NCBI GenBank assembly: GCA_030950485.1
Contig: JAUZRK010000018.1
Span: 1 to 52,687 of the forward strand
Length of the DNA: 52,687 nt
From: Candidatus Dojkabacteria bacterium
Lineage (GTDB): Bacteria > Patescibacteriota > Dojkabacteria > J137
Direction: 5' to 3'
Every line of letters starts with the position of its first letter. Position 1 is the stretch's first letter. Below, one piece after another: positions 5,104 to 46,729 of this stretch. The notes beneath the pieces are model-generated. The model ran no database searches, was not told where the DNA came from, and was given only the letters and a program-made list of their open reading frames with translations. Position numbers and translations under genes: made by a program.

Positions 5104-5203
5104 CGCAGCGTAGAGGTCGCAGATCTGCGACCATGGGGCCTGGATAACAAGCACATGGTTTTAAGATTATACATCCAGGACGAATGTTGCACCCTACGCT
5201 GAG
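5104..5203 (+). repeat. GC-rich structured intergenic repeat (family 1), copy D (diverged)
   Basis: cagcgtagaggtcgcagatctgcgaccatgg ... cctggat/atccagg hairpin ... ccctacgctg. Same outer stem and first hairpin as copies C and E. Sits between the divergent ATPase and uvrB genes. Confidence 0.7.
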
Positions 5204-5243
5204 ATCTTTCGGGTTTTGGGAGAGAATGAGTTATAATCTATTT

Positions 5244-6508: not shown

Positions 6509-7060
6509 ATGCTATTATTCAGAACAAATAATACGATAGATATGAGTCAAGTTGAGATATCAGAAATAGATTACGCAGGAGATTTTCTATCTGATACTTT
6601 AGTAAATCCAAGTTATGAAGCCTTGGCAGAGGTAGCTGAGATGGAGATAATGCCGGATGTAATAGTTGAGCGTGATGGTAATACAATTCCATTTGATACA
6701 CTAAAACAGATGGGAGTAATTGCATTAAGACAAGCAAAAGATCTAATATTGATTAGTGAACAGACTCAACACCTTTATACTTATAGGGGAGATACAGTAA
6801 AAGTCTTTAACACTAGCGATTCTGAAACACTTACAGCAATTGAAGATTGCCTTGATAACCCAGACTCCTGGAAAGTTTTTTTTAGAAGAACAAAAGAAGG
6901 AAAGTTAAATAGTATTGATTTTATTAGTGATAAAGAGCCATTAAGCATAAGGCTGTATTTACAATATCCACCTAAGAGCTCAAAATATAAAAGTAACGAT
7001 TATATTTATCTGATGCCTAGTTCGGTAAGTATTAAAATTTATGAAGAAAGAGAGGCTTAG
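6509..7060 (+). CDS. Hypothetical acidic protein occupying the position of the missing uvrB 3' part
   Basis: 183-aa ORF with ordinary coding composition and no motif I recognise. Followed by a strong hairpin terminator. Confidence 0.4.
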   Translation: MLLFRTNNTIDMSQVEISEIDYAGDFLSDTLVNPSYEALAEVAEMEIMPDVIVERDGNTIPFDTLKQMGVIALRQAKDLILISEQTQHLYTYRGDTVKVFNTSDSETLTAIEDCLDNPDSWKVFFRRTKEGKLNSIDFISDKEPLSIRLYLQYPPKSSKYKSNDYIYLMPSSVSIKIYEEREA

Positions 7061-9048: not shown

Positions 9049-9100
9049 TAGAGACTAGAGACTAGAGACTAGAGACTAGAGACTAGAGACTAGAGACTAG
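9049..9100. repeat. Heptanucleotide tandem repeat (tagagac) x7.4
   Basis: Seven perfect units starting at 9049, 9056 ... 9091, plus a partial unit. Lies between the alaS start codon and the four-helix-bundle gene remnant. Confidence 0.95.
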
Positions 9101-9320
9101 GAACTTGAGTTTTTTATTAAGCCTTTAATTAACTTATGGACTGAGATGGCTAAAGCATATGATTTTTTATAATCATCATCTGAAATATATTTTAAGTCTT
9201 TAGCTATGATCAATTGGTTTTTTATCTCACTTAACGATCCAGATGCTATATAGTAAAATCTAGTTTTTTCTTTATATGTAAATCTACCAAATCCTTCAGC
9301 AATATTTGATGTTACTAAAA
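9097..9320 (-). pseudogene. 5'-truncated four-helix-bundle protein gene (23S rRNA intervening-sequence protein family)
   Basis: The minus-strand frame reads LVTSNIAEGFGRFTYKEKTRFYYIASGSLSEIKNQLIIAKDLKYISDDDYKKSYALAISVHKLIKGLIKNSSS*. It carries the family hallmarks NIAEGxGR and IAxGSxxE. There is no start codon and the first 45 or so residues are missing. Confidence 0.75.
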
Positions 9321-9627
9321 GAAAAAGCCCATCCTCTAATCTCTCTTTATTAAAAGATCAAAGGACGGGCTTTGCCGTGTTACCACCTTAATTCCTATAT
9401 CTATTGCTAAATATAGCTTAGTTCCCAATTGTTTGGGTTCAATTTACAGTTTTCTTCTGTAGTGCTTAGTAAAATGTATTAATCTCGATGAGAAATTACA
9501 TTAGCTCACACTCAGCTCCAGAGTAGCAATATATTTTTAATTTAATGCTGTTTTACAACTTAAGCACAGCTCTCTTTATTAAATTACTAAAAATATATAT
9601 TCTCCTTCTTAGCTTTTTTTGAATTGT
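9321..9627 (-). promoter_or_regulatory. T-box riboswitch leader upstream of alaS
   Basis: On the minus strand, AATTAAGGTGGTAACACGG (plus 9375-9393) matches the T-box motif AAnnnGGGTGGTACCGCG. It overlaps the 5' arm of the terminator AAAGCCCGTCC(9363-9373)...GGATGGGCTTT(9324-9334), which is followed by TTCTTTT. An AGAGAG element lies near the 5' end. A candidate Ala specifier GCU-A is at 9502-9505. Confidence 0.8.
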
Positions 9628-9780: not shown

Positions 9781-10473
9781 TTAAAACATTGACTGTACTC
9801 TACTTAAAAGACCTTTTCTTTTCTCATCAATTTCTCTATTTTCTGTTGTAAAATTGTGGATTATAAATGCAGCGATGATTGCAAAACCACACATTACTGA
9901 TGCTATAAAACTCCCTTTTGTTCCTAAGAAAAGAAGAACAAAAACTGACGTAGGAAAAAAAGATGCGTAAGCTAGCAACGTTCTATTTAACTCTTTCTTT
10001 TCTATTTCATCTGTACTTTTGAAAAATTTATATGCAACGATAACCATAGTAGCTGAAAGAGTTGCAGGATAATAATACATCCATGTCCTAAAGACAGTAC
10101 TATAAGAATCAGAATAACCAACTATTTTTGCAAAACAGTTTACTGTATCTGCAGCTGAGATTGAGTCAGGAATTAAAATGAATGCTGATGATAGGGCGAT
10201 CGCATAGATTCCTACAAATTTTGAAAGATAACTTCTCTTAGTAATGCTTTCAACAAGCCATAAACCTAAAGGAGGTAAAAGTGTTGTTGCAGCAAAAGCT
10301 ACTCTTAATGACCATAAGTTTTTTTCCGGATTTAAGAAAAAGATAAACTCGCTAAAAAGAAAAGAATTCCCGTAGCTGGTTTTTTATATCTAAGTCCTTT
10401 TGTCCAGATTTTATATGCGAGAAAATATTCTACTAATGCAGTTATTAATGATCTTAAAATTAGGATTTCCATA
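9781..10473 (-). pseudogene. Polytopic membrane protein gene split by a frameshift
   Basis: An ATG at 10473 opens MEILILRSLITALVEYFLAYKIWTKGLRYKKPATGILFFLASLSFS*. A second frame (..FFLNPEKNLWSLRVAFAATTLLPPLGLWLVES...TVFRTW) runs without a start codon straight into the 99-aa ORF 9781..10080. The switch lies near the A5/T5 run at 10337-10341. Confidence 0.65.
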
Positions 10474-10481
10474 GGTTGATA

Positions 10482-13758: not shown

Positions 13759-14574
13759 TTAGTCACCTCTGTTTTGCCAATTAGTATAATTATCCAGTGC
13801 AACCATAGCACAGCTTAATTCATCATCTCTAGTAACAGTTACATAGTCGATAGTTACATTAAGATCTGCCTGGTTACCAGTAACTACTGTATAAACAAGT
13901 TTAGGTCCAAATAAAGTCACATCAATTACGACATTAGCAGCTCCTTCAGCAGCTTCTTCTCCAAGATTTACAACAATTTTTTGACAACCTTCATTTGTGA
14001 TTGATTCTCCTGCAGTTTCTATAAGAAAGCTAGCAGCTCCGATAGGATCTTCTCTAATCTCATTTACTACGGACATTAATGAAGCCATAAACATTAAAGG
14101 AATTAAGCACGAAGCTACACTTAATCCTAATATTAATTTCTTTTGTTTAATCGCTATTTGAGCTGCAGTTATTGGTATTCTTAATTGAGGTATTGCTTTA
14201 AGGAAATTTAATATTTCGGGATGTTGCAATATTAGCTTTATAGCTTTTACTTTATTTATTGGATTCGAGCTTAAAAGTAGGGGTAGTGCTTCTGTTATAA
14301 CCTTTAGCTGAGAAGGGTCCATTTTTTCGACTCCTGCAGCTTTAAATCCTGCTTGTATTGCACTTTGGGGTATAACTCCACCTAGCTTACTACTTAATAC
14401 TTTAGATAGTTCGGCTGTTTGGTCTACTTCCTCTGAAGCTTGTGCCTGGCTAAGTGCTTGTACTAGCGCTCTGTTTGAATTTACCCAGTTAAAGTATTGC
14501 TGCTCTGGGGTAAGTCTTTGCACTCTTGTTCTTGGTGCTGGTTTTGCGTAATTTCTAGGTGCTGCTGCGTCCAT
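13759..14574 (-). CDS. Hypothetical protein with one central TM segment (last gene of the envelope block)
   Basis: 271 aa with an ATG start. Ala/Gln-rich N-terminus, hydrophobic segment LILGLSVASCLIPLMFMASLMSVV, and a C-terminal beta-rich region. No recognised motif. Confidence 0.5.
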   Translation of the reverse strand: MDAAAPRNYAKPAPRTRVQRLTPEQQYFNWVNSNRALVQALSQAQASEEVDQTAELSKVLSSKLGGVIPQSAIQAGFKAAGVEKMDPSQLKVITEALPLLLSSNPINKVKAIKLILQHPEILNFLKAIPQLRIPITAAQIAIKQKKLILGLSVASCLIPLMFMASLMSVVNEIREDPIGAASFLIETAGESITNEGCQKIVVNLGEEAAEGAANVVIDVTLFGPKLVYTVVTGNQADLNVTIDYVTVTRDDELSCAMVALDNYTNWQNRGD

Positions 14575-14613
14575 ATTTACATGATAATACTTTGGGAGAT
14601 GGAAGACAATTTA

Positions 14614-14829
14614 TTAGATGATTCCTAGCTTTTTCTTTATTTTTTCGATAGTATCATTTATCGCTCTAGTATCTCTATTAATATCTTGTCTATTAAATGT
14701 CTTAGAGATTTGTTGTAACCTATCTAGGGCACGCCTTAGAATATTTCTATTTCCGCTATCTACTTCAACCATTGACGTTATTTGTTCTGCTTGGTTGACT
14801 AGAAAATACTGATTGCTCCTGCATTTCAT
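14614..14829 (-). CDS. Arg/Asn/Asp-rich segment, probably the displaced C-terminus of the giant charged protein
   Basis: 71 aa with the same composition as 15344..18130. It overlaps, in a shifted frame, the end of the start-less open frame 14768-15115. Ends in a tandem TAA TAA. Confidence 0.4.
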   Translation of the reverse strand: MKCRSNQYFLVNQAEQITSMVEVDSGNRNILRRALDRLQQISKTFNRQDINRDTRAINDTIEKIKKKLGII

Positions 14830-15115
14830 TTAAAGCTAATTCATGGTCTAAAGGCTCCCCTAATAATGGAGCTTCTTGACCTTGTAAATTTAATCTCCTT
14901 CTATTTTCAGAGAGAATATCGTCTTGTAGTTGTCGTAATCTTTTCTCACCTAATCTTGTGCCTCGAGAATCGTTGTCTCTAGTATTTCTGACTGAATTTA
15001 TTCTGTCCCTAATATCTCCTAATTGACGTATTGTGGCTCCTCGAATAATATCATTTCTTAACTGATTTAATTCATTAATATATCTTTCATTTTGATTAGC
15101 TCTGTCTTCAATATT

Positions 15116-15337
15116 TTAAAGCTGTTCTGCACCAAATCTATCACGCTCTAGCCCGTATTGTTCTCTCATATTATTTCTAGCTTCTCTTAACTCTCTCAAT
15201 CTCGGATCGTCAGCTCTGATTTGTAGATCTATGCTAGTATCAGCATTCTCTCCATTAACTAAATTTTCGCCATTACCTAATTGTCTTGCGTAAAGAGTAT
15301 CTGCTTCTGCTTTCACTTCTTCTATTTCTTGAAACAT
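15116..15337 (-). CDS. Charged segment in frame with the giant protein (between two in-frame TAA codons)
   Basis: The ATG lies 2 codons after the TAA at 15344-15346, in the same frame. The sequence (..DDPRLRELREARNNMREQYGLERDRFGAEQL) resembles the upstream protein. Confidence 0.45.
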   Translation of the reverse strand: MFQEIEEVKAEADTLYARQLGNGENLVNGENADTSIDLQIRADDPRLRELREARNNMREQYGLERDRFGAEQL

Positions 15338-15343
15338 TCTCTC

Positions 15344-18130
15344 TTATTCAGCAAGCTCCTTCTCTCTATTTCTAATGTTGGCGATAAGATCCATTATTAC
15401 CTGAGCTTCGGCATCTGGTCTTTGCTCTAATTGAGTAATTATTCTTTTTAAAGACCTTCTTTGTTGGGCTATCTGTTCTCTTTCTCTATTCATTAAATTT
15501 ATATTGTCTTCAGATGTACCTGCTGCTGGATTTGTTCCAATCATTTCTCTAGATCTATTTATTCTATCTAGTAATGCAGCTGCAGACCTCTGATATCCTT
15601 CATTACCAATCCATCTAGGATTATTTTCATTGATTCTTCTGAAGTTTTCTCTCTCTATTCTAAGTATCAACTCTCTTTCTGCCTCCATTTCCTGATTATA
15701 TTGGTTTTCCCACCTTCTCTCTCTCTTATTAAGTTCATATCCATCTTCTCTATCTTTAACGGCAGGGAATTTAGCTTGAGCGTTTTCTCTTCTTGTTCTT
15801 ACCCTTTCATATAAGTTGACTAAATCATCTGTAGTTTCAACCACTGCGTTAATATCTAGCCCCATATAATTTTGAATAGCTTGTCTATAAACTGAATTAT
15901 CTATAGCTTTCTCTTTAAGGCTTTGATTCCTCTCTCTCAACGCTCTAATATCATCGTCCTCTTTAACTGTAATTTCATTTTGATTAAATTTCATAAGTAC
16001 TGCTCTTAATCTTACTTCATATTCGCTAAGTCTTTGCTCATTTCTTTTGATGACTCTTCCTTCACCTTCTAGTTCAAGCATAGCTAACTCGTCATCCTCA
16101 ATTCTCGTAGCTTTATTATTAGCCATATCTATATTAAGATAGGCTTGGTTTAAATTATTGACAACTTCATATCTCTCGTCTATTGTAAGTCTTACATTAT
16201 TCAGATCTCCTATAAGTTCTTGAATTATATTAGCTTCTCTATCTCTTCTCCTTAACAATCTCCATACAACTCCTTTCGCAGCTTCTGCTCTATCAGCTAA
16301 AGTATTTATCATTTCTCTAGTTCTTACTCGAATTGGATTTCCTATTGGAATATTATCGTCTGTCTCCTCAATAAAGTTTTCTGCTAGTGTGTCTTGTCCT
16401 TGATCAAGTATTTTAATATCGTCAATTACCTGTCTCTGTTCTTCGGGTGCTCCTGCCATTACTGCAGTAGTATATTCCCTCTTTCGTTCTACCTGATCTC
16501 CTTTTCTATAAGTGTAGATTCTATTATAATCTTCTCTAGTTAAGGCTTCACCTGCTAATATGATGCATTGGTTTGCTTTATCCCTTATCCTGGCCCACCG
16601 CCTTATATGATTTTGAATTGTTTTATCTTCTGAATCTGCAGCTAATTCCTCAAGATTTCTTTTAGCTGCTGGAAGCCTTTTGTCTCTCGCCTCGTCTCTT
16701 GCAGCTTTCATTTCCTCTGCTTCAGCTTCGTCTATTCTTTTATTTACATCTCTCTCATTAAGATTGTTAGCTGTTTGGTTGAATCGCTCGTTTGCAGTTG
16801 CTCTTCTTTCTAAGCTTATTCTTCTCGGCGTCAGCCCTGGAGAGTCTTCTGTATCATTTAATCTATTTCTACCTTGCTCATCATTTAAAAATCTTTCTGA
16901 TCTCTCCGTATTTGCTAGCACTGCTTCAGCGTCTCTAACATTATCAATAAATTCTGCTCCATTTTCTTCTGTCGTATCCCAGTATCTAGGATTATTCTCA
17001 TCTAAATCATTAAAACCTCTTTCTTCAGTAATCTCATCTCGTCTTGTTCTTCTATAATCTCTAACATGAGGTTCATTTAGTTCTAAAATTTCGAGACTTC
17101 GTCCATAAACTTCGTTCTGAATTTCTATCTCCTCGAAAACAACAATAGGAACGCTCCTTCCAGCGTTCACTTCTTCAGTTAAAGCTACTCTTTTCTGTTG
17201 ATTATTCTCAATTTTTTTTCTTATACCCTTAGCTGCTTCTGCCCTCCCTTTAACTGTGTCTCTTTCAGCAATTTTGGCTGCTTTTTGATAGGGAGCTAAT
17301 TCATTTCTAGCTGCTTGAAGCAATCTAAGATTACCAGCTGCGTCTCTTAAATTCTTTATTCTTTCTTCTTGACCAATTGGAATATTATTATCATCCATAG
17401 TTCTAGCTGCCTTTATCTGATCTATTTGAATTTCTAATGCATTTCCATAAACATTAGCTACATCAAACAATCTGCCGACAATGTCATCTCTAGTTTCAAT
17501 AGCCTCGACTAACATTGTAAACTTAGGATGATCCGTATCCATATAGTCCCCATCTTCAACAATAGCCTCTGTCATATTTTGTAGACTGGCAAGATCATTA
17601 AATACCTTTGCTAATTGGTTTAAACCAACATCAGCATAGTCTACAATATCGTTCGGATTATCTACATCTAGCTTTGCATTTTTCCCAAGCTGGAATATTT
17701 TTATTAGTTCTTCTATTTTTTTTCCTGAGGATAACTCAAAGCTCTTAAATCTAGTAGCAAATTCCTTCGGAGATAAAAGCAAAATCTGATCTAAGACAGC
17801 AGCTTCTGGAGTTTTTCGTTTAGCGCCAGCTCTATTAATTCTTCTAAACCTCTCAGGACTTAGTATAGAAGTTTCTCGTCTTGCATCTCTAATTTCTTTT
17901 CCATGTTCCAGCTGAAGATGTTTCTCCCATAATCTTCGTTCGTTTTTAGACATAGCATCCCCTACTATTTGAAGTTGTATATGTCGGTTAGCATTAGGCT
18001 GCAATGAAGGCTTTTCAAACCTTGTACTTAGTGGATCTCCTGTTTCTTTTATTATTAACTGCTTTTCTTGAGCCTCTGCCTCTAATGCTGCTGCTATTTG
18101 AGTATCCATTGTGGTTGCTGTATCAGCCAT
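15344..18130 (-). CDS. Giant hyper-charged Arg/Glu/Asn/Asp-rich repeat protein, function unknown
   Basis: 928 aa with no TM segment. Internal repeats: DDNIPIGQEERIKNLRDAAGN vs DDNIPIGNPIRVRTREMINTLAD, and ENNPRYWDTTEENG vs ENNPRWIGNEGYQ. Long predicted helical and coiled stretches. Confidence 0.7.
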   Translation of the reverse strand: MADTATTMDTQIAAALEAEAQEKQLIIKETGDPLSTRFEKPSLQPNANRHIQLQIVGDAMSKNERRLWEKHLQLEHGKEIRDARRETSILSPERFRRINRAGAKRKTPEAAVLDQILLLSPKEFATRFKSFELSSGKKIEELIKIFQLGKNAKLDVDNPNDIVDYADVGLNQLAKVFNDLASLQNMTEAIVEDGDYMDTDHPKFTMLVEAIETRDDIVGRLFDVANVYGNALEIQIDQIKAARTMDDNNIPIGQEERIKNLRDAAGNLRLLQAARNELAPYQKAAKIAERDTVKGRAEAAKGIRKKIENNQQKRVALTEEVNAGRSVPIVVFEEIEIQNEVYGRSLEILELNEPHVRDYRRTRRDEITEERGFNDLDENNPRYWDTTEENGAEFIDNVRDAEAVLANTERSERFLNDEQGRNRLNDTEDSPGLTPRRISLERRATANERFNQTANNLNERDVNKRIDEAEAEEMKAARDEARDKRLPAAKRNLEELAADSEDKTIQNHIRRWARIRDKANQCIILAGEALTREDYNRIYTYRKGDQVERKREYTTAVMAGAPEEQRQVIDDIKILDQGQDTLAENFIEETDDNIPIGNPIRVRTREMINTLADRAEAAKGVVWRLLRRRDREANIIQELIGDLNNVRLTIDERYEVVNNLNQAYLNIDMANNKATRIEDDELAMLELEGEGRVIKRNEQRLSEYEVRLRAVLMKFNQNEITVKEDDDIRALRERNQSLKEKAIDNSVYRQAIQNYMGLDINAVVETTDDLVNLYERVRTRRENAQAKFPAVKDREDGYELNKRERRWENQYNQEMEAERELILRIERENFRRINENNPRWIGNEGYQRSAAALLDRINRSREMIGTNPAAGTSEDNINLMNREREQIAQQRRSLKRIITQLEQRPDAEAQVIMDLIANIRNREKELAE

Positions 18131-18278
18131 ATCTTAATTATTTTAATTCCATTATATATGAATTAGAGAGAAGTTTGTTTGTGTTTTGTTGAATAGAATT
18201 TTAGAGCGTTTCTTATGCTTTGTCTTTTCTTATCTGAGTTAAGTCATTCCACCCTAAGTTAGGTAGAATGACTTTTTT

Positions 18279-18767
18279 TCAGAAAATGAGCATAGTCAGT
18301 AAAACTAACTTTGCCCAAGTTGACAAGACGGCAATTAATGCCCATACCATCATCCACCTCCTAATTCGAGGATGATAGTTAAACAGAAAACGACCTCCAG
18401 GGTCGGTTCCTATTCTGTGGCGTTGCCACCTGTTTAGCTCGCTCCAGGTTGCCTCCCTAGGGAAGACCCTGAATCGGCTAACTGTCTGTAACGACAGTAA
18501 ATCAACTAGACTTATAAGTGCTAAAAGTAGCCACTTATTTTCTATGATTTCTAAGAAGTTTAATGTATCAACTTCTTTATTTAAGTAAAACAGAGCTATT
18601 GGAAAAATTATTATTCCAAGTGTAGATCCAATAAATACGCAAAACATCCAGCTGTTAAGGATGAATTCGCTGACTCCAAACAGACCGATTATCAGAAAAA
18701 CGAAACTTAGAATTGAGATACCTAAAATAACTAAACTCAACTTCTTATTCCTTTCAATAGTAAACAA
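18279..18767 (-). CDS. Small membrane protein with a GC-rich Arg/Trp-rich internal segment
   Basis: 162 aa (TTG start) with TM helices at both ends. The central approx 18340-18500 is far more GC-rich than its surroundings and encodes RFRVFPREATWSELNRWQRHRIGTDPGGRFLFNYHPRIRRW. Confidence 0.5.
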   Translation of the reverse strand: MFTIERNKKLSLVILGISILSFVFLIIGLFGVSEFILNSWMFCVFIGSTLGIIIFPIALFYLNKEVDTLNFLEIIENKWLLLALISLVDLLSLQTVSRFRVFPREATWSELNRWQRHRIGTDPGGRFLFNYHPRIRRWMMVWALIAVLSTWAKLVLLTMLIF

Positions 18768-18972: not shown

Positions 18973-21855
18973 TTATACTTGTGTGATAAGAGATATAGTT
19001 AGAGGATTAACTTTAGATTGATCACCATTTGATACTACTCCACCTATTTTGAATACTAGCGGTCGACTGTTTGCTGGAGCAGCTGCTGGTGATAAGATTG
19101 GAGGAGCATCAGTGAATAGAAACTTCTGAGCTGTTGTACTATATCTTCCCATTAAACCAACAACATCATTCCAATTATTGGCTCTAAATACAAGATCTAC
19201 TTTAATAGCAAAACTTTGCCCATTTACAGTAGGATAAGGATCTTGAGGTGTAGGGTCAGCTCCAGTCATACCTCTATTAGCTACAAGTAAATGTACTGAT
19301 GGACTAGAAGTTCTTGGATCTAATGTTCCAACTGCATTTACATTCTGAGGGTTAACACCTCCTGATGCAAAGTCAAATGCTTGTCCTGTACCCGGTGGAT
19401 TTATGTTTGTAGGAATACCTGGGTATAACTCAATTTCTGAATTAATACCTGCATATGGCCCCCCAAATCCATTTGCAGTTCTTCTAAATACTGTAGCTGC
19501 ATTGTTAGTACCTCTACTTTTAGCTTCTGCTATAACAATGTCATTTTTACTTACAACTGATCCGAATGAATAATTCTCAGCTGTAAATGAAACTTTAAAC
19601 CCTTTAAGAAGTACTTCATTAGTAGCCATAGATCTAAGAGGCATAGCCCCACCAACGAAATCATCGGGGATTGCTCCAAATTGTCCTAGAATACCTAATA
19701 GATTATCTTGCGTTAAAGTAATAGTTCCTCCGCTAACACCTGGACCTTTGAATTCTACTTTTAGAGCTCGTGGTTTATCTGGATCTTGCGATCTAGAGTT
19801 AGTACCCTCTCCTCCTAAGTTAGACTCGGCAGCATTTACTACTCCAAGTAGTAAATTACCAGCAGTTCTTGCAGTTAATCTAGATACAGCTGCCCTCGCG
19901 TCACCTAAAACTGTTCCATCTCCCTGTGACTCTTTTGCTGCTCCAACAAACTGTCTAATCCCCCCCATTTGTTTTCTATATGCATTTGATAAGATTCCAT
20001 CTGCTCCATTTAATTTTCTACCAGTAAAGGCAACTGACGTACTATTAGCAAGTCCCCCTGCCTTATTAATACCTTGTTTTCCATAATCGATACTCTGCTT
20101 CGCTAAATTAACACTATCCTTCGCAGAATTAAATGCATTAGTAAAGAATTTCGGTACTTTTATCTGAGTACCTAATTCATCATCAATCTGCTGCAAAGTA
20201 ACTGGAATATTAAGATAAATAGCAACAGCCATAATAGCCATCATAAACCCATTAACACCAGCAAAAACATCATCCGAATAACCAGCAATTACACCTAACC
20301 CACTCATAGGAGGAATATAAACTGTACCCGCAGAAGCAGGAATAGCAGCGGCGAAAGATTCATTTGAAAGAATTATTGCTAGTAGGAATAATAAATAGGT
20401 TGTTATATAAATAATACTAGCAGACCACATCATCTTTAAGAAATCCATTATAGCCTTTGTACCATTACCAGGTACTGCTACCGTAGCCATAAAAAACGGC
20501 GAAAATATTGGGAAAATTACAAAGATAATATATTTTTCAATTAGCTTCTTGAATATTCTAAATGAAGTTATAAAGAGTAGTATTGTTATTAAGAAATTTA
20601 TAATTTGTGCAAACCAGAATGATACTACTTCTGAATCACTTGCACCAGTTCCAGCTGAAGTGCCTCCAAATCCACCAAAGAAATCAATAACTCTAGCTAA
20701 GATAACAAATACTGAAAACTGTAAAAATCCACTTAATGGTCCTCCATTAGTACTTATATTAGTAAGCGAATCATCCAAAGTTCCAGCTATGTTGACTTGG
20801 AATGCTGAATTGTACCAAACTAATCTGTCGTCATTAGCATATAAGCCTCTATCAATAGGATTTCCTGTAGAATCCTTAGGCACTTTACCCTTACAATTTT
20901 CAGCTCCTCCTGAATTTAGCTCAGCTACTGTAGCATCATTACTACGTAGAAAATAAATACTTTTATCACTTCGTTCCACGAATTTAGTCTCCAAATACCT
21001 AGTTTCAGCCTTACTACAATTTCTGAGATCATAAACTACTCTAGCAGGAGATCCATTTCCTACGAGAAATTCATGCGCAATATCAGTACCTGCTGTAACA
21101 ATATCAATAAAAACCGCAGAAATAGGATAACTTAAAGGGACTAGTATCATTGCCAGTGCAATATTTGGAATAGCACTTTGGATAGTAACTGAAGCTCCAC
21201 CGCTAAGTCTCGCTCTAAACATAATTGCGAAAGCAACTCCTACAATAAGGAAAATTAAAATTCCATAAACTACATTAACCGACCATCCCCAGAAAGCTTG
21301 AATAGGTTTAAGTAAAGAATAACCAGTACCTGGATAATATACACTTGGATCGTTTTGAGCATTTACACTTCCAAAATTACTTAACGCATAGACTTGTTGT
21401 TCAACATAGCTTCTTGAACTAGCAGGTCTTTGTTCTAGCAATTCAATTGTTAGATTTTGCATAGAAAGCACAAGTCCTCTATTTTGTGATTCTGGAAGAG
21501 TTCCATTTAAATATCCATATATATAGTTAACCGCTTTTGGGTCAGTAGCTAGTAGTTCAATATTACCGCAATCTTCAGGTGCTAAATCAGAATTTTGATT
21601 TGCCCCTTTAATTCCATCAATAAAATTAATAAATCCACCTTCACTAATTGATGACATAAAATCAGGTACTATACCAACGGCTTCTGATGAACGACAGTTC
21701 TCAAGTGTTGCTGAAACTTCAGGGTTAGTAAAATCCAGAAGAAAGCTTCTTCCAATTGATTTAGCAGATGTACTAGACAAAAAGAAAAACCCTATTACTG
21801 ATATAAAAACCAGTAGTAGCAAAGCTAATATTTTAACTCTTTTCCCTTTATACAT
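18973..21855 (-). CDS. 960-aa polytopic envelope protein (VirB6/TrbL-like topology, inferred)
   Basis: N-terminal signal/anchor MYKGKRVKILALLLLVFISVIGFFFL. An extracytoplasmic domain of about 170 aa. Two blocks of multiple TM helices (about aa 190-260 and 370-560). A Gly/Asn/Pro-rich soluble C-terminal region of about 400 aa. Confidence 0.7.
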   Translation of the reverse strand: MYKGKRVKILALLLLVFISVIGFFFLSSTSAKSIGRSFLLDFTNPEVSATLENCRSSEAVGIVPDFMSSISEGGFINFIDGIKGANQNSDLAPEDCGNIELLATDPKAVNYIYGYLNGTLPESQNRGLVLSMQNLTIELLEQRPASSRSYVEQQVYALSNFGSVNAQNDPSVYYPGTGYSLLKPIQAFWGWSVNVVYGILIFLIVGVAFAIMFRARLSGGASVTIQSAIPNIALAMILVPLSYPISAVFIDIVTAGTDIAHEFLVGNGSPARVVYDLRNCSKAETRYLETKFVERSDKSIYFLRSNDATVAELNSGGAENCKGKVPKDSTGNPIDRGLYANDDRLVWYNSAFQVNIAGTLDDSLTNISTNGGPLSGFLQFSVFVILARVIDFFGGFGGTSAGTGASDSEVVSFWFAQIINFLITILLFITSFRIFKKLIEKYIIFVIFPIFSPFFMATVAVPGNGTKAIMDFLKMMWSASIIYITTYLLFLLAIILSNESFAAAIPASAGTVYIPPMSGLGVIAGYSDDVFAGVNGFMMAIMAVAIYLNIPVTLQQIDDELGTQIKVPKFFTNAFNSAKDSVNLAKQSIDYGKQGINKAGGLANSTSVAFTGRKLNGADGILSNAYRKQMGGIRQFVGAAKESQGDGTVLGDARAAVSRLTARTAGNLLLGVVNAAESNLGGEGTNSRSQDPDKPRALKVEFKGPGVSGGTITLTQDNLLGILGQFGAIPDDFVGGAMPLRSMATNEVLLKGFKVSFTAENYSFGSVVSKNDIVIAEAKSRGTNNAATVFRRTANGFGGPYAGINSEIELYPGIPTNINPPGTGQAFDFASGGVNPQNVNAVGTLDPRTSSPSVHLLVANRGMTGADPTPQDPYPTVNGQSFAIKVDLVFRANNWNDVVGLMGRYSTTAQKFLFTDAPPILSPAAAPANSRPLVFKIGGVVSNGDQSKVNPLTISLITQV

Positions 21856-22110: not shown

Positions 22111-23286
22111 CTAAAGTCTTTTTATAGCGTCAACAAAGAAAGTGAAATTGGCTAATCCACCATTTTCTAACCTGGCTACTCCTTTAAAAACATAAATTGG
22201 ATATGTATAACCTGCCCAATCTTCTGGCTCCCAGTAAGCAAGCTCAGTTCTTGTAGCATCAACTCTAAATTCAGTTACAGCAACATTCGTGCTTAGATTC
22301 GCAAAATAATCTGTATTACTATCCTGGAAATATACTAAACTTCCATTACCTCTTTGTAAATTAGTTAATGCTTCATCTGGAGTAACTACTTCATATAAAG
22401 CAGGAGTACTATAATCAAAATCAACAAAATCAATTGAAAAAACATCACTTGGGTAATTTTTAAGTTGGTTGGAAACGATTAGATTTACCTGCCCCTCTCT
22501 TGGATCTGTAGAATATACCTTTCCAACTGTGTTTTCAGGGACTGTTTCTCTATAAGCTTCTGGTATTTCCTCTCTAACCCTTACTATCGATTGAGGTAAT
22601 TTTCTAAAAATACTAATGAATACAAAATCTGCTTCATTTACGGTTTCTGCTTCAAAAAAGATACCGTCTAAACCTAATACAGAATATCTAATTTCAGCTT
22701 GCCCACTAGATAGGCCTAATCCTGTAAATCCTAGTGAATTGAGCAATTCTTTTGCTTCAGACGCGTAGTAAGTTATATCACTAGATATTGATTTAAGACC
22801 AAGAGCTGCTGCGTTTTCATACCAATCTGTAGTCATCTCCCATTTTCTAGTCGAAGTATTAAAAGTAATTTGTTTTGTAGAGTTATCTTTTCCCCAAAGA
22901 TATTCTGTTGCTGGAATTAATTCAGTAAAATTATCAGGACTAAAGCCTAATATACTAATTGTATCTCTAGCGTTATCGAAAGTATCAAGTTTCTCTCTTG
23001 GTTTTTCTACTGCATAAACATACGCGGTATCTGGAAAAGCCAAGTGAAAATTTTGTCTTATAATAGGAGTAGACTTATTATATTGTAGACTAGGTATTTG
23101 GGGCACGCTAATTTCTCCATAAAGTCTATCTGCTGGTACCCAGTAAGAAAATTTTTCTTCTGCTACCGGTAATGCTTTTTCATTATAGCTACTCAATGTT
23201 TGGAAAATCATTAAGATAACTATTAATACAAGCAAAAAGACGAAAATCTTTCTGTTTCTATTTGTTTGATCGTATAAAGATGCCAA
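22111..23286 (-). CDS. Bitopic exported protein, function unknown
   Basis: 391 aa, TTG start, N-terminal anchor KIFVFLLVLIVILMIF, then a large mixed alpha/beta extracytoplasmic region. Co-oriented with the block. Confidence 0.6.
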   Translation of the reverse strand: MASLYDQTNRNRKIFVFLLVLIVILMIFQTLSSYNEKALPVAEEKFSYWVPADRLYGEISVPQIPSLQYNKSTPIIRQNFHLAFPDTAYVYAVEKPREKLDTFDNARDTISILGFSPDNFTELIPATEYLWGKDNSTKQITFNTSTRKWEMTTDWYENAAALGLKSISSDITYYASEAKELLNSLGFTGLGLSSGQAEIRYSVLGLDGIFFEAETVNEADFVFISIFRKLPQSIVRVREEIPEAYRETVPENTVGKVYSTDPREGQVNLIVSNQLKNYPSDVFSIDFVDFDYSTPALYEVVTPDEALTNLQRGNGSLVYFQDSNTDYFANLSTNVAVTEFRVDATRTELAYWEPEDWAGYTYPIYVFKGVARLENGGLANFTFFVDAIKRL

Positions 23287-23365: not shown

Positions 23366-23866
23366 CTAAATACTTCCATCAGGAATAACATCAAGAACAT
23401 TAATACCAATAATTCTAAGTATAACCACACTGAAAACAAGTACAGCAAGTCCTGCTAAAGTCGCAAAGAATTTCTCTCTAGCCTCAACAATTTTAGCTTC
23501 TTGTCCTGATTGATACATTAATCCAGCTAAAATAAGTTGAATAAGAGCAACACCACCCATAACTCCAAAAGCAATTCTAATCATTCCAGTTACAAGACCC
23601 AGAGGTGTTACATCTAGACAACCAATAACAATCCAAATACCTCCTTGAATTATACAATTATTACAAAGCAAAAACTCTTGCTCTCCTGCTGCATCAAAAG
23701 CATTATTAGCTTTGCAAAGATCATATTTAGTACGGTCAACAAGCTCTGTACAACAACCATCATTAATATCCCCGGCAGCTTGTGGAGCTTGTATATTAGG
23801 CTGATTACCTCCACCGACTGGTTGATTTAAAACTACAAGATCTAAATTTCTTTGACCAATTATATT
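23366..23866 (-). CDS. Cys-rich VirB2/TrbC-like two-helix (pilin-like) domain, open in frame from the upstream gene's TAA
   Basis: DGCCTELVDRTKYDLCKANNAFDAAGEQEFLLCNNCIIQGGIW, then two hydrophobic helices (IRIAFGVMGGVALIQLILAGLMY / FFATLAGLAVLVFSVVILRIIG) separated by the polar loop QSGQEAKIVEAREK. The first start codon (TTG, 23671) falls after most of the Cys-rich region. The frame is open back to the TAA at 23867-23869. Ends TAG TAG. Confidence 0.55.
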   Translation of the reverse strand, partial: NIIGQRNLDLVVLNQPVGGGNQPNIQAPQAAGDINDGCCTELVDRTKYDLCKANNAFDAAGEQEFLLCNNCIIQGGIWIVIGCLDVTPLGLVTGMIRIAFGVMGGVALIQLILAGLMYQSGQEAKIVEAREKFFATLAGLAVLVFSVVILRIIGINVLDVIPDGSI

Positions 23867-24587
23867 TTATGTAGATCTATCGTAGGCTGCAATTGTTACA
23901 GTAGCCTCATCACTTATAAAACTATATGTTGCTGTAAAAGTCCCATCTGCATTTACGTCTACTATATCAAGATCGTTAAATGGGGCAACAAACATTCCTG
24001 AAATGGGATCTATTAGTCCAAATCTAATAACGTTTTGAAAAAGGCACCCTGAAATTGATACAATATAGCTGTTCTGGGCTGTAACTGTTGCGGCTCCAAA
24101 ACTTATTGTACTATTTCCTTGACAATTATCATTTACAGTAGCTGCATCTACTAAAGTAATTGTATTTTCACAAGTTTCCCTACTTCGATTAGTAGCTATA
24201 ATATTTACAGCTGAAAAGTCTACTACAGAAAATGGACTTGAATTACTAATTTCTATATTTAAGAAATCAAGCTGCTGCGCTAGAGGTATATTAACTTGAT
24301 TATTAATATCAAGATAATTTTCTAATGGTATTGGGCTTTTATTATTATCAAAATCTTCTTCATAATATTCTACTGCTGGATTAAATGGAGCGCTTAATGA
24401 TAAGGGTAATGTTAATCCATTCCCTCTTCTTACTAATTCAGCAGTAAACACTATTGGTGAACCTGCTGGTGTAATTGAACCCTCTGTTACATTAATTGAA
24501 AAAGAATTTGTTTGCGCATCTACTAAATACGAAAAATAGCGAATTAGTAATAACAATAGTTATTAAAAATATTATCTTAGACTTCAT
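23867..24587 (-). CDS. Secreted beta-rich protein; the signal peptide is in a different frame (frameshift at an A5/T5 run)
   Basis: The ATG at 24587 encodes MKSKIIFLITIVITNSLFF.., which stops after 31 codons. The main 229-aa frame begins ..YLVDAQTNSFSINV. Removing one T from the run at 24532-24536 joins them into a canonical signal peptide with a VDA/Q cleavage site. Confidence 0.6.
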
Positions 24588-24686: not shown

Positions 24687-25535
24687 TTACTGCCCATTTC
24701 GTGGAGCTGCATTTGGATTATTGTGAGGTAATCTTTTTAACTGAGGCATCTGTATTTGTTTAGGTATAGGTACATTAACGAAGTTATTATGTACTTGAGG
24801 AACTTGTTGATTTTGCAGAGGTTGTCCCGTTGGAATATTTACATTGATTGTTTGATGTATAGGTTGAACAGGTGCGCTTGGTAACTGATGTGAATTCATA
24901 GGTTGGATTGAAGGATATTGTCTTTGAACAACATTCACTCTTCTCTTTTTTTCTTCATTTTTATTACTTCTTTCAATAAGACTTTTAATAAATGAATCAG
25001 AAGTTATATCAAAAATTACTACAAGTATTAGAACTATTACTGTAGATAAATAGATTCTATCTTCTAAGAATGTTAAATTAGTAATATTTCTAGTCCATTG
25101 AGTTAAATTTATAATTAATTTTGAAAAGCTGTTTTGGTCGCTACTTACTAAAAATAGATTAAGAACTAAACGTATAAATATAACTCCTTCTACTATTTTA
25201 AAGAAAGTATCAATTACGTTTAATATTATCGTCGATGCTTTGTCATAAAGAAACGCAGTAACTATTTCTGATATTAAAATTCCTCCAATAACTATAAATA
25301 CTAAAGCTGCTAAGGCATCAGCATTTAAATCCTGAAAGTCGGATCCTTCGTCAATAACAAAAATGCCTTTAAAAGGTGTGATAAAAATGTCTGAGATTAC
25401 ATTTATAAGATTTACAAGAAAGTTTTCATCATTTGCATTAAATGTGTCAAGTGTAACTCGTAGAAATAGAAATACAGCTATAAAGCCAGCTATAGCTAAA
25501 ATGATTCCTCTAACTCTAATTCTAAAATCTCTCAT
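24687..25535 (-). CDS. YggT-like integral membrane protein (two YGGT-like repeats) with a Gln/Pro-rich tail
   Basis: FLFLRVTLDTFNANDENFLVNLINVISDIFITPFKGIF and VIFIRLVLNLFLVSSDQNSF resemble the YggT repeat. The C-terminal 90 or so aa are low-complexity Q/P/N-rich. Confidence 0.5.
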   Translation of the reverse strand: MRDFRIRVRGIILAIAGFIAVFLFLRVTLDTFNANDENFLVNLINVISDIFITPFKGIFVIDEGSDFQDLNADALAALVFIVIGGILISEIVTAFLYDKASTIILNVIDTFFKIVEGVIFIRLVLNLFLVSSDQNSFSKLIINLTQWTRNITNLTFLEDRIYLSTVIVLILVVIFDITSDSFIKSLIERSNKNEEKKRRVNVVQRQYPSIQPMNSHQLPSAPVQPIHQTINVNIPTGQPLQNQQVPQVHNNFVNVPIPKQIQMPQLKRLPHNNPNAAPRNGQ

Positions 25536-36099: not shown

Positions 36100-36159
36100 C
36101 TGCTCAATTTGTTTTGAGTGACTTTCAGTTCAATCTTCGGCTACAATACTTACATTAAA

Positions 36160-36768
36160 ATGAATTATATGAAAGAAATCGAAATTTGGTCAGAAATAGA
36201 GGCTGACATTTATCATACTAAAATTAAAGAATTTAATGAGAAGTTTGGTCAGCCAAAAACAAAGAGGAGACTATCTTTTAGATTCGGTTTTAATAGTGAT
36301 TACGTGACCAATACGAGAATTCGAATCACGAATGGTTATGCTGAGATTATGCACAAGACTGGAAGTAATCAAAAGACATTTGTACGAAATGAAACTGAAT
36401 ATGCTATTGATAATGAGCCAAATAGCATTTTAAAAATGGTGAATTTTTTTCGAAATATTCTTAAAGCTTCGGATGAAACACATTTTTATTTAATTCAATT
36501 CGAAAACTCAATTTGGGATATAGGTGATTATGAAATTAAACTTACCCATTAAATAGGAAATCAAAATATCTATAGTTTTGAAATTGAGCTACAAACTGAA
36601 GAGATGAACGAGGCTAACTTAGAGTCTTTAGCCTTAGATCTAGGACTTCCTATTAAAGATGAGATAAGAGACAATGCTTTCTGGAAGAAATTTAATGAAA
36701 GGGTTAATATTGATGTTAAAGAATGGAGTGATGAAAAAATATTAGAGATCTTATCAAAATATCTCTAA
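36160..36768 (+). CDS. CYTH (triphosphate tunnel metalloenzyme) domain protein interrupted by an in-frame TAA at 36550-36552
   Basis: N-terminal KEIEIWSEIE (ExExK-like), NTRIRITNGYAEIMHKTGS, RNETEYAID. After ..DYEIKLTH-TAA the same frame continues for 71 codons: IGNQNIYSFEIELQTEE... This supplies the C-terminal EIE strand of the CYTH tunnel. Confidence 0.6.
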
Positions 36769-42309: not shown

Positions 42310-43337
42310 TCATTTCCTAGTCTTCTCCTCAGCCTCTAAAACAATTCTAAACGCATCTTCTAAAGAAGTAGCTGTAAAAGAACAACCAGCAGCATATAAA
42401 TGGCCACCACCACCAGGAAAAGACATAGCAATATCTCTAACTTCTCTTTTCCCAAATTGCGATCTAAAACTTGCACCCCATTGATTTTCAACTCCACATT
42501 CCTTTTTTACTAAAAATCCCCACTCTACTCCTTCTATATTTCTAAGATAAAGATCACTAAAATAATGTTTCGCAAGACCTGCATCTGCTCTATCCTCTTC
42601 AGGTATATCAAGTAGATAAGTATAAGCGAAATTATCTTTATATCTTGTATTTTCAATAAGCTTAATTAAATACTCATTAGCTTTCTTTGTAAGTTTATAA
42701 CTATGTTTCAAAATAGATTTTGGATCAACTTTAGCGTAATCGTAAAGATCTACAAATATTTCATAAGTCTGACTTTTTGGTTTTTCAAACTGGAAATTGT
42801 TAGTGTCTGAAATAACACCTATTTGAATTAGTTCTGCTATATATTTCGAGACTATTAAATCCTCTTTAAAATACCTCTAAAGCCTGTATATATTTCTTCA
42901 GTTGCAGACGCAAGAGCTCTATCTATATGTATGTCTACTCTATGTAATAAATCATTTTGATGATGATCTATTACAAGAATATTGTTATCTTCAATCATTT
43001 TAAAATCAGCATTATCAAAACACCTGCCTAAATCTGAAGCATCGACAATTACTAATGTATCGTACTTATCTAAGAATATCTCATCAAAGCTTTCAATATA
43101 ATTACTTAGAATTTTCTTTAGATCTCTAATACTAGAGATTGGCGTTGAAGGTTTTCCTTCAAGTCGAATATCTATATCTTGAATATTATTATAATGAATA
43201 CTTGCTAGCTCTTTAAATAATAGACAGCTTGCTGCTGCGTCAATATCCGCTCCTTGATGTGAGATTACTAAAATATTAGTAGCTTTCTTTAATGATGAAT
43301 CTAATTTTTCTAATGCAACTTCTATATTATCTTGCAT
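42310..43337 (-). pseudogene. Second NrnA-like DHH/DHHA1 phosphoesterase, split by a 1-nt frameshift
   Basis: ORF 42855..43337 carries DIDAAAS and VIDHHQN and ends ..FRGILKRI*. The frame of ORF 42310..42711 (GGGGH) is open upstream to 42870 and reads ..EDLIVSKYIAELIQIGVISDTNN.., colinear with the intact paralogue (FREVLNKDLVITELQAKLIQIGIISDSAG). The switch lies at the T3A4 run 42865-42871. Confidence 0.75.
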
Positions 43338-44376
43338 CTAATTTTTTTATAACATTTAAGACTGTGTCTACAGCTTTTAATGAACTTGGTGCTTCTACAT
43401 AACAAGCTGCAGCTAAAGTATGCCCTCCTCCATTAAATTCTTCAGCAATTTCTTTAACATCTTTGTTTCCGTGTAGTGTTCTAAAACTTACATACCATTT
43501 TTTAGATGTATCATTAAATCGTTCACTTGATGAATTTCTTACAACGAATCCCCAGTTTACTCCTTCTAATGGTTTTAAATATACATCAGTAAAATATCTT
43601 CTAGCAAGATTTATACCCTCTTCATTTTTAACTTCTGCAAGCTCATCTGAGATATATGTATAACAAAAGCCATCTCTATACTTTAGATTTCCAACAAAAT
43701 TTATAAAAAATTCATTTGCTTCTCTTGGAATCATATAACTATTGATTACTATTCCTTGAGGATCTACATTTGCAAAATCTCTAAATTCCGCCATTATTTT
43801 ATATGTATTCTTATTTACTCTTTCAGTTATTAAGCCAGCGGAGTCAGAAATTATTCCTATTTGAATAAGTTTTGCTTGTAGCTCAGTTATTACTAAATCT
43901 TTATTTAATACTTCTCTAAAGTCTAAATATATTTGTTGAGTTGCGGCTGGAGCTAGATCGTTTATATATAAATCAAGTTTATGTAGTGGGGTCTGGTCGT
44001 GATGATCAATAACTACTATTCTTGTATCATTTAATTCATCTATATTTATACTTGCAAAACAATTCAATAAATCTGCAGCGTCAATTACAAAAATCGAATC
44101 ATAGGTTTTTAGTTTTAAATCATTCTTATCTTCTACTATATATTTTTCTATCTCGCTTAATTCTTCAATATATTTAACATGTTTTGAAAGAGGCTTAAGA
44201 ACTTTAATATCGATTTTCTTAATATTCTTGTAGTGATTTTCTATTATAGATTTAAATAATAAGATGCTTGCAGCTGCGTCTATATCTATATTTGGATGCG
44301 TAGTTAGTAAAATCTCTTCTGAAGATTTTAGTATTGAGTTTAGTTTCTCTAGTTTTAATTTATGGTAATCATTCAT
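43327..44376 (-). CDS. nrnA: NrnA-like DHH/DHHA1 phosphoesterase (nanoRNase/pAp phosphatase family)
   Basis: DIDAAAS, VVIDHHDQ and the DHHA1 motif GGGHTLAA. 349 aa. Confidence 0.7.
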   Translation of the reverse strand: MNDYHKLKLEKLNSILKSSEEILLTTHPNIDIDAAASILLFKSIIENHYKNIKKIDIKVLKPLSKHVKYIEELSEIEKYIVEDKNDLKLKTYDSIFVIDAADLLNCFASINIDELNDTRIVVIDHHDQTPLHKLDLYINDLAPAATQQIYLDFREVLNKDLVITELQAKLIQIGIISDSAGLITERVNKNTYKIMAEFRDFANVDPQGIVINSYMIPREANEFFINFVGNLKYRDGFCYTYISDELAEVKNEEGINLARRYFTDVYLKPLEGVNWGFVVRNSSSERFNDTSKKWYVSFRTLHGNKDVKEIAEEFNGGGHTLAAACYVEAPSSLKAVDTVLNVIKKLDAR

Positions 44377-45577: not shown

Positions 45578-46729
45578 CTACTGCTCTAGCCAATGTGTAT
45601 ATCCTTTATCGAACATATGCTGTTGTAGTTTTAGTTTTATTTCTTTACTACCTCCTTTGAAGATATCTAATAGTAGTTTTGGTAAAACTCTAGCAATCTC
45701 TATTTCTCCATTAGCAACAGTACCATCTAAACTAGTGACGGCTAAATAAGTTAAGAATTGTGCCAATACTCTCTTTAAATTTGTTAATTCTAAAACCTCT
45801 TCCCAAGTAAAATCTTTATCCGTATCAGATTCAACGAACTCCTCATCTACCTAATTCCTAGGAATTAGGATTTTCTCAAGTGCATCAATAGCAACATAGG
45901 CTGCAGGCTGATTTTGTAACGATGATAGAAATTCAACTCCAATTCTTTGTTTCGCTTTAAACTTATCTGGAAGTAAACCATTAAAGTCGATATCTACTCG
46001 TCTGATCATGTTATCAATAACAATCTGAGCTTCATCATTAGATAAGTTTCCATTAGTTCTTATAAGAGTATAAAATGTTGCAGTATTATCTTCGGTTCCC
46101 CCAGATCTGGACTCTTTACTAGTTTTTAATATACCAAAGACAATTCCGTTACCTCTAACCCTTCTTTTACTATCAACTAATTGATTATAAAGATCTTCCA
46201 TGAAGGTAAGTATTGAGACTACATCATTATCGGGTTTAAAAATCTCTTTTTCAGAAAGAGGTAAGTATGTTCTAATTCTAAATCCTTGCTTTTGGTACTG
46301 CATGTCAGTTATCGTATTTGCTTGGATTCCAATCTTTAAAGTTTGGAAAAATTCTGGTATTGTTTTAAAGTCGTTATAAAGAAAATTAGCCGCTTCTGCA
46401 ATTTCTCTAATCCCCATTTTGTGATTTTTAAAGACTGGACTAACTTCGTCTACAAACCATTCACTTGTATCAATAACTACATCTTTAATTTCTATTTGTT
46501 TATTAAGCAACCGTAACTCGGAATAGGTACATTTCAATCTACCTAACCTTAGTCTAAGATCAGCAGGAGACATATTTTGCATTTCAGCTGCTGCTACTAT
46601 TGCTCCTCGAAGTGCAGAGCCTTGAATCTCAATAACTAGTTCATTCCCTTCATGATCAAACTTGTAAAAGTCATCATTAAAAAAGTTATCGAATTCTGAA
46701 TTTTTAGCTTCTAAATAACGCTCGGACAT
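45578..46729 (-). CDS. Hypothetical protein; the 292-aa ORF continues in frame past a TAG (45851-45853) for 90 more codons
   Basis: After ..ILIPRN-TAG the same frame reads VDEEFVESDTDKDFTWEEVLELTNLKRV and runs into ORF 45578..45766 (62 aa) without interruption. No recognised motif. Confidence 0.5.

Follow-up and report, generated by a model that had tools for sequence, protein, structure and literature searches.

In young pseudogenes and truncated alleles of host-dependent, small-population bacteria, in-frame stop codons and homopolymer frameshifts are found while the coding signature downstream of the lesion remains intact. Several genes may be hit in one region, and in an AT-rich genome the change of CAA or CAG into TAA or TAG is the easiest nonsense route. 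In-frame stops in otherwise intact genes of the Candidate Phyla Radiation (CPR) are also found in lineages with a reassigned stop codon, such as Gracilibacteria and Absconditabacteria, in which UGA is read as Gly (code 25), and suppressor tRNAs and recoded phages are further systems of this kind. UGA-to-Gly recoding has been documented in another CPR lineage (PMC13293708); the literature on Dojkabacteria and stop codons yielded only this known UGA recoding in other CPR lineages. The subject of this analysis is a gene of about 1,169 codons that is interrupted by two TAA codons and one frameshift. It lies on the reverse strand of contig JAUZRK010000018.1 of a Candidatus Dojkabacteria bacterium (assembly GCA_030950485.1), in a stretch of 52,687 nt with a GC content of 31.7%, which is hereafter called the window.

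This gene shares with young pseudogenes its in-frame stops, a frameshift at a short homopolymer and a coding signature that persists downstream, and several genes of the same region are likewise hit. It differs from them in that nonsense changes outnumber indels in the window, that most of the affected genes, including greA, have received a single hit, and that the N-terminal 80% of the gene is still an intact open reading frame (ORF), probably expressed. Unlike the reassignment systems, the codons concerned here are TAA and TAG rather than TGA, TAA is the main terminator, the cases number six in about 17,500 codons, and none has been found in related DNA.

Segment A of the gene (15347..18130, reverse strand) appears in the ORF list and its translation as an uninterrupted ORF of 928 codons (15344..18130 including the stop), and ends at a first in-frame TAA at 15346-15344 in the context GAA TAA GAG AGA ATG. 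Segment B (15119..15343, reverse strand) adds 75 open codons in the frame of segment A, namely Glu-Arg and then a 73-codon ORF (15116..15337) with its ATG at 15337, up to the second in-frame TAA (15118-15116, reverse strand; context CTT TAA AAT ATT). In segment C (14768..15115, reverse strand) the same frame stays open for a further 116 codons until a TGA at 14767-14765. The earliest ATG, GTG or TTG of segment C is its codon 97, so that the preceding 96 codons are start-less. Segment D (14611..14829, reverse strand) is a tail in the +1 frame that overlaps the 3′ part of segment C; it consists of a 71-codon ORF (14614..14829) from an ATG at 14829, with about 66 codons past the frame switch, and closes with a double stop TAA TAA (14616-14611), 37 nt ahead of the ATG of the next gene (14574). 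Since +1-frame stops sit just upstream of 14829, the switch of frame is confined to 14829-14768. The likeliest site is an A4 run at 14803-14806 of the forward strand (T4 on the coding strand), the sole homopolymer of at least four bases in the overlap of segments C and D, and removal of one base there fuses ...QEQSVF to LVNQAEQ.... The original prediction had reported two in-frame TAAs followed by a shifted 71-aa ORF, and re-reading of the sequence found every one of its coordinates to be correct.

A single ancestral frame of about 1,169 codons, broken by two TAAs and one +1 frameshift, accounts best for the four segments, because codon bias, composition and helix periodicity are continuous across them and segment C has no start codon of its own. 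With the stop density of 0.118 per codon that was measured in the off-frames of the segment A ORF, an open run of 75 codons has a chance probability of 8e-5 and one of 116 codons a probability of 5e-7, and when the 192-codon tail was shuffled 20,000 times, every shuffle contained more than two stops. The log-likelihood of codon usage, trained on the segment A ORF alone, lies above zero in frame 0 between 15346 and about 14840, across both TAAs, and then in frame +1 between about 14806 and 14700, the remaining frames being negative throughout. The switch at about 14836-14806 thus agrees with the A4 run at which the frame change had been proposed. The content of Arg is 11.4% in segment A, 13.3% in B, 14.9% in C and 11.3% in D vs 4.1% in the rest of the window's ORFs; charged residues make up 31-37% of segments A to D vs 24.6% in the rest of the window, and Arg exceeds Lys. 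The amphipathic periodicity of the protein also spans the junction of segments A and B, the enriched region covering residues of about 855-965 (windows starting at 883-911). Both the single frame of roughly 1,170 codons and the unusual composition shared by all segments, as put forward in the original prediction, are accordingly upheld.

The breaks are not peculiar to this gene, as four other genes of the window carry a single in-frame stop. They came to light when the window was scanned for in-frame stops with long open segments on either side and the candidates were inspected, and they bring the total to six cases (five TAA, one TAG and no TGA) in about 55 genes or about 17,500 codons. In greA (40835-41293, forward strand), a TAA at 41057-41059 lies between full-length GreA_GreB_N and GreA_GreB domains, both scoring above the Pfam thresholds; 27 start-less codons follow the TAA, and in the public assembly the gene call is limited to an N-terminal fragment of 74 aa. 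A pilin-like gene (o229/o101; 23366-24556, reverse strand) is split by a TAA at 23869-23867 into a 229-aa ORF (23867..24556), 65 start-less codons and a 101-aa ORF (23366..23671), and homology to relatives begins 15 residues upstream of the nominal start of the latter. In four relatives (loci L013, L024, L033 and L036) this gene is one ORF of 399-558 aa with the pilin-like domain always at the C-terminus. An orphan ORF of 292 aa (45851..46729, reverse strand; to 45581 with its tail) ends at a TAG (45853-45851), past which the frame runs on for 90 open codons that look protein-like and score positive for coding; the 292+90-aa read-through query found no homologue for the ORF or for its 90-codon tail. 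Likewise, an orphan ORF of 144 aa (36118..36552, forward strand) ends at a TAA (36550-36552), beyond which 71 open, coding-like codons reach the convergent neighbour (to 36765). Apart from greA, there is no in-frame stop in about 8,000 codons of the conserved window genes, and the long conserved genes (alaS, two P-type ATPases, uvrC and a Mur ligase) are intact. The same scan of 76 kb from six related Dojkabacteria loci gave zero cases.

The sequence around these stops is uneven. The hexamer TAAAAT occurs in three of the six and TAAATA in a fourth; the triplicate TAAAAT has a post hoc probability of about 0.002 for that codon and about 0.02 for any codon. Four of the five in-frame TAAs are followed by A, as against 3 of 21 genuine terminal TAAs, 12 of which are followed by T. 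The excess of TAA-A is significant in this comparison (Fisher P of about 0.01); with the first-base frequency of sense codons as the reference, it is not (P = 0.13). The bias could reflect a mutational or base-calling hotspot, or a context of weak termination.

Two further damaged genes were observed in the window, a remnant of a 23S-rRNA-intervening-sequence protein (9100-9357, reverse strand) that is without the first ~41 positions of its profile, and a membrane-protein gene (9784-10481, reverse strand) with a probable frameshift in a homopolymer-rich stretch at about 10335-10383.

A second assembly, GCA_030949735.1, contains the exact 928-aa protein on contig JAUZSD010000017.1 together with separate calls for the 73- and 71-aa genes, and records of these proteins are confined to two NCBI contigs each. 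Both TAAs, the A4 frameshift and all other in-frame stops of the window are common to the two assemblies, which are about 99.9% identical and differ in their contig ends. Over 14.6 kb they differ by 2 substitutions and 5 indels, and over 16.8 kb by 6 single-base indels and no substitution, which gives 2 substitutions and 11 indels, the latter nearly all homopolymeric, in about 31 kb (window 13456-52687; loci L001, L005 and L011). As the assemblies differ at 13 sites elsewhere, their consensus is not identical; as the differences are almost only homopolymer indels, at least one of the assemblies was built on error-prone reads. Each indel disrupts a gene in one or the other of them. In coding DNA, the window copy is intact at six of the seven differences, the broken copies of GCA_030949735.1 being o391, the C-terminus of greA, UDG, CYTH, a 176-aa ORF and the tail at 36734. 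The one broken copy of the window is a DHH/DHHA1 gene (42310-43337, reverse strand) with a frameshift at an A4/A5 run at about 42867, which is intact with 342 aa in GCA_030949735.1; an intact DHH/DHHA1 paralogue adjoins it at 43327..44376. The window thus appears to be the cleaner of the two assemblies.

The explanation that is favoured, and that is held to be moderately probable, is that the stops are recent, real nonsense mutations under relaxed selection and that the 928-aa product is still made. An ancestral gene would have encoded a protein of about 1,169 residues, the last ~240 codons of which would have been cut off by two nonsense mutations, most simply CAA to TAA, and by a one-base frameshift at a short homopolymer. 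The present product would be the 928-residue N-terminal protein, possibly accompanied by a 73-residue peptide made by re-initiation at the ATG 6 nt past the first stop, while segments C and D would be untranslated remnants. The 73-aa and 71-aa "genes" of the public record are probably fragments. The breaks would then belong to a larger set of recent inactivating mutations in this genome, due to relaxed selection or strong drift rather than to a gene-specific device. A single transition turns CAA (272 codons) into TAA and CAG (98 codons) into TAG, which fits real mutations in an AT-rich genome, and three lesions in this gene against one in each of the others would be anticipated had its tail fallen out of use earlier. 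That the cleaner assembly retains the stops also speaks for real stops. Several observations weigh against this explanation. Five of the six stops are single hits with a fully open downstream frame, and frameshifts outside homopolymers are few, although pseudogene decay usually gives indels at least as often as nonsense mutations. GreA is the product of a conserved housekeeping gene, both domains of which are still intact, and the occurrence of TAAAAT at three of the six stops is unexplained by random decay. At least one assembly, as mentioned above, derives from error-prone reads; the two assemblies may share reads, and the shared A4 frameshift in particular could be an error. Finally, as there is no homologue to compare with, the single ancestral ORF is argued from internal continuity alone.

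The same evidence can be turned towards sequencing error. According to this rather unlikely alternative, the ORF of ~1,169 codons is intact in the organism, and the stops and the frameshift are consensus errors common to two assemblies that derive from identical or similar noisy long-read data. The 11 single-base indels, mostly in homopolymers, against 2 substitutions in about 31 kb are what error-prone reads leave behind. Some conserved genes are frameshifted in one assembly only, namely DHH/DHHA1 in the window and o391, UDG, CYTH and the C-terminus of greA in GCA_030949735.1, and the A4 frameshift itself falls in a homopolymer. A shifted boundary between adjacent T and A runs is an error mode that would fit such stops, and four of the six have a T before and an A after the changed base, which is a T-run/A-run boundary; moreover, the related short-read contigs are without in-frame stops. 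However, substitution errors are the minority class, so that six nonsense errors would have to be accompanied by some 100 or more substitution errors over the 52 kb, yet substitutions separate the assemblies at only two positions. All stops are kept in the cleaner assembly, the long conserved genes are intact, and a k-mer test for motif-specific miscalling found no depleted 5-7-mer for any hypothetical original base. Division into genuinely separate genes is less probable still. On this view, segments A (928 aa), B (73 aa) and D (71 aa) would each be a functional gene of its own, translationally coupled to the others and similar to them in composition, with segment C as a spacer. An ATG opens both B and D, and the public record lists each as a gene; B starts at a typical coupling distance from the stop of A (6 nt), and a missing ribosome binding site is no counter-argument in a genome without Shine-Dalgarno sequences. 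The spacer, though, would be 116 codons long, stop-free and start-less with the same codon bias and composition (P of about 5e-7). The ATG of D falls within the overlap with C, right after the +1-frame stops, and the first five codons of D score below frame 0 in the codon model. Helix periodicity continues through the junction of A and B, and neither B nor D has a relative in phmmer searches. Suppression or readthrough of real stops is an equally poor candidate. An ochre-type suppressor tRNA (its anticodon UUA reading UAA and UAG) or weak termination at UAA-A would allow the full-length protein of ~1,100-1,170 residues, GreA and the pilin-like protein to be partly made, in keeping with the single hit per gene elsewhere, with downstream frames that stay open for 65-116 codons, including that of the conserved greA, and with the A after four of five in-frame TAAs vs 3 of 21 terminal ones, three of these stops being TAAAAT. 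Recent mutations would also leave downstream frames open, however, and the +4 A bias is not significant against sense codons. TAA is the main genuine terminator, related Dojkabacteria are without such stops, and the frameshift would stay unrepaired. No tRNA gene is present in the window (both Rfam and tRNA scans of it were empty) or in loci L005 and L011 of this genome, so that a suppressor is not in evidence. The furthest-reaching form of this idea is the least probable, namely that a fraction of UAA and UAG, preferably UAA before A or AAU, is decoded in this lineage as a tolerated and possibly early stage of stop-codon capture outside the known UGA-recoding CPR clades. Two related proposals were considered and rejected: an alternative genetic code, as TAA closes 31 of the 51 stop-to-stop frames with 120 codons or more, as well as 21 of 37 called genes, and only greA is hit among conserved genes, and a reassigned TGA at the end of segment C, as TAG and TGA recur within a few codons.

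Real nonsense mutations being the favoured explanation, the question arises of what the ancestral protein was. Judged by sequence searches with the 1,169-aa concatenation or the 928-aa ORF as query, the gene is a lineage-specific orphan, and the failure of the first inspection to recognise a homologue is borne out. A word-seeded search of 5.8 billion clusters with the 1,169-residue query gave nothing at an expectation value (E) of 1e-3 or below, and phmmer against 1.84 billion cluster representatives returned only the 73- and 71-aa ORFs of the window itself. There were zero relatives in GTDB genome contigs and JGI metagenome contigs and zero matches to the protein in Pfam, NCBIfam and PHROGs, and the best hit among PDB sequences was insignificant (E = 0.074). 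In about 557 kb from 29 Dojkabacteria loci, the best tblastn match, on segment A, had E = 0.05. Two matches in PADLOC, at 14-16 bits, were insignificant and were treated as noise, and two ENA fragments of 47 aa that share the 90% cluster of the 928-aa protein are unrelated to it by sequence.

The protein of segment A is rich in Arg, Glu, Asn and Asp, with 35.7% charged residues and 11.4% Arg vs 5.1% Lys. No transmembrane segment was found in it (the top Kyte-Doolittle mean over 19 residues is 0.72), and since it is without a hydrophobic segment, it is taken to be soluble. A single-sequence AlphaFold2 model of the protein is all helix, with 31 helices of up to 42 residues, at a low mean confidence (predicted local distance difference test, pLDDT, of 41). 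Of 76 windows, 16 show an amphipathic periodicity of 3.4-3.7 residues above the 95th percentile of shuffles, and these form three regions. The ancestral product would thus have been soluble, elongated and mostly α-helical. EzrA/spectrin-like and Scy/FilP-type proteins are long bacterial scaffold proteins rich in α-helix or coiled coil. The present protein resembles them in being large, soluble and predicted all-helical, with helices of 30-40 residues and a 3.5-residue amphipathic periodicity in three regions, but it has no sequence or profile similarity to any family, and its helical model is of low confidence. It differs from single-alpha-helix (SAH, ER/K) proteins in lacking an excess of i/i+4 salt bridges, as opposite-charge pairs at this spacing are not enriched (36 observed vs 35 expected).

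The gene had also been described as encoding a repeat protein, and this part of the original prediction did not hold. Tandem Repeats Finder gave nothing relevant to the gene, there are no long direct DNA repeats in it, only 14-25-nt matches of chance size, and self-BLAST of the protein gave nothing under E = 0.01, a local alignment of the two motif-bearing regions reaching z = 1.1. What exists is five short motifs, RAEAAKG, (DD)NIPIG, ENNPR, FRRIN and RVRTR, each present just twice. Repeated 5-mers number 7 vs 0.88 expected in shuffles (RAEAAKG being counted as three overlapping 5-mers), and a repeated 7-mer has P = 0.004 vs shuffles. These duplicated motifs may be left over from an ancient internal duplication, or they may be short functional motifs that recur.

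The surroundings of the gene consist of membrane and envelope genes, so that its placement inside an envelope gene block, as first noted, is correct. The gene content of the window is bacterial and includes alaS, uvrC, a Mur ligase, an MraY-type transferase, a signal peptidase, a peptide deformylase, NrdR and two P-type ATPases. A short way upstream of the gene is a polytopic membrane protein of 960 aa (18973..21855), which has 46 homologues, the named ones being from Candidatus Dojkabacteria. A scan of GTDB with the alignment of this family gave 29 loci, a plurality of which are labelled Dojkabacteria, and many of the others bear generic labels such as "uncultured Candidatus Saccharibacteria". 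Its conserved partners are a 391-aa protein (o391; 22111..23286), the protein of 400-560 aa with a pilin-like C-terminal domain of two transmembrane (TM) segments, and a 282-aa membrane protein (o282; 24687..25535). The AlphaFold2 model of the 960-aa protein, built from a 44-sequence alignment, has a pLDDT of 63.6, and the best PDB match of this model in Foldseek is TrwI/VirB6 of the type IV secretion system of plasmid R388, a weak match with E = 0.13, a probability of 0.69 and a target-normalised TM-score (template modelling score) of 0.35. From its model, therefore, the 960-aa neighbour may be VirB6-like. The likeness to type IV secretion (VirB6/TrwI and VirB2/TrbC-like proteins) comprises the best structural matches of this protein, the two-TM pilin-like neighbour and the adjacent variable slot. 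Against it, the Foldseek match is weak, the pilin-like domain is without a Pfam match, and no VirB4/VirD4-type ATPase is present among the window ORFs, so that the combination of a VirB6-like membrane protein, a VirB2-like pilin and a VirB4-type ATPase, by which a type IV secretion-like cluster would be recognised, is absent; nothing ties the segment A protein itself to secretion.

A block of about 5 kb (13759..18767), composed of a 162-aa ORF, the gene of ~1,169 codons and a 271-aa ORF, is without a counterpart in relatives. On its two sides are the genes of the 960-aa protein and of a P-type ATPase, which in relatives lie close together. In a comparison of the block with L002, L006, L008 and L009, its orientation relative to L008 implies an inversion. 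The slot after the homologue of the 960-aa protein holds a protein family of 695-919 aa in L008, L014, L015 and L017, while L006 and L007 have Arg-rich proteins of helical appearance there, with lengths of at least 683 and at least 468 aa, respectively. These slot proteins are unrelated by sequence to the gene of ~1,169 codons and, between groups, to each other: hhalign of the protein against the family of 695-919 aa gave a probability of 0.1%, and BLASTP between the Arg-rich proteins of L006 and L007 gave no match. Because the slot of relatives holds other large, sequence-unrelated proteins, it is a slot of fast turnover beside a conserved envelope gene set, and the gene is its occupant here.

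Among the remaining features, a TATAAT hexamer at 18151..18156 (reverse strand), 20 nt upstream of the ATG of segment A, is a putative -10 element. A scan for promoter consensus sequences gave only weak sites, no more numerous than in shuffles. No Shine-Dalgarno sequence was found in the 25 nt upstream of 41 start codons of the window genes. AT-rich sequence precedes the starts, in several cases with a TATAAT-like box 6-12 nt ahead of the start codon, an arrangement suggestive of mRNAs that are leaderless or have short leaders. A 221-aa ORF (48604-49269, reverse strand) weakly matches an IS200-like Y1 transposase and is the sole mobile-element-like gene seen in the window. The uvrB gene (5184-6479, forward strand) encodes only the N-terminal 431 residues, with the ResIII and UvrB interaction domains and without the C-terminal helicase and UVR domains, and the ORF that follows it (6509..7060) is unrelated. 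The uvrB of the syntenic relative L008 is 411 aa long, and a short uvrB may be conserved in this clade.

As for function, a role of the protein as a cytoplasmic accessory or scaffold, or as a cargo, of the neighbouring envelope apparatus is weakly suggested by gene position and by a Foldseek match at E = 0.13, a basis that counts against pressing it. Its evolution would be so fast that positional counterparts elsewhere in Dojkabacteria share no sequence relation with it, and rapid divergence together with partial decay would reflect weak or shifting selection. Genes for host interaction are commonly under such selection.

The six in-frame stops in 52 kb, greA included, would point to rapid shedding of genes, to uncorrected assembly errors or, least likely, to a tolerance of ochre and amber codons; if assembly errors are the true cause, analyses of gene content would be misled. 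The residual value of the case lies in this window-wide pattern of in-frame TAAs. The likeliest biology is ordinary: a lineage-specific gene, the tail of which has decayed, in a genome (less likely, an assembly) with many lesions of this sort. The contact of CPR bacteria with their hosts is thought to rely on envelope regions of this kind. In this respect, the locus documents a large, fast-evolving orphan protein beside an envelope gene set (the 960-aa protein, o391, the pilin-like protein and o282) that is apparently restricted to Dojkabacteria.

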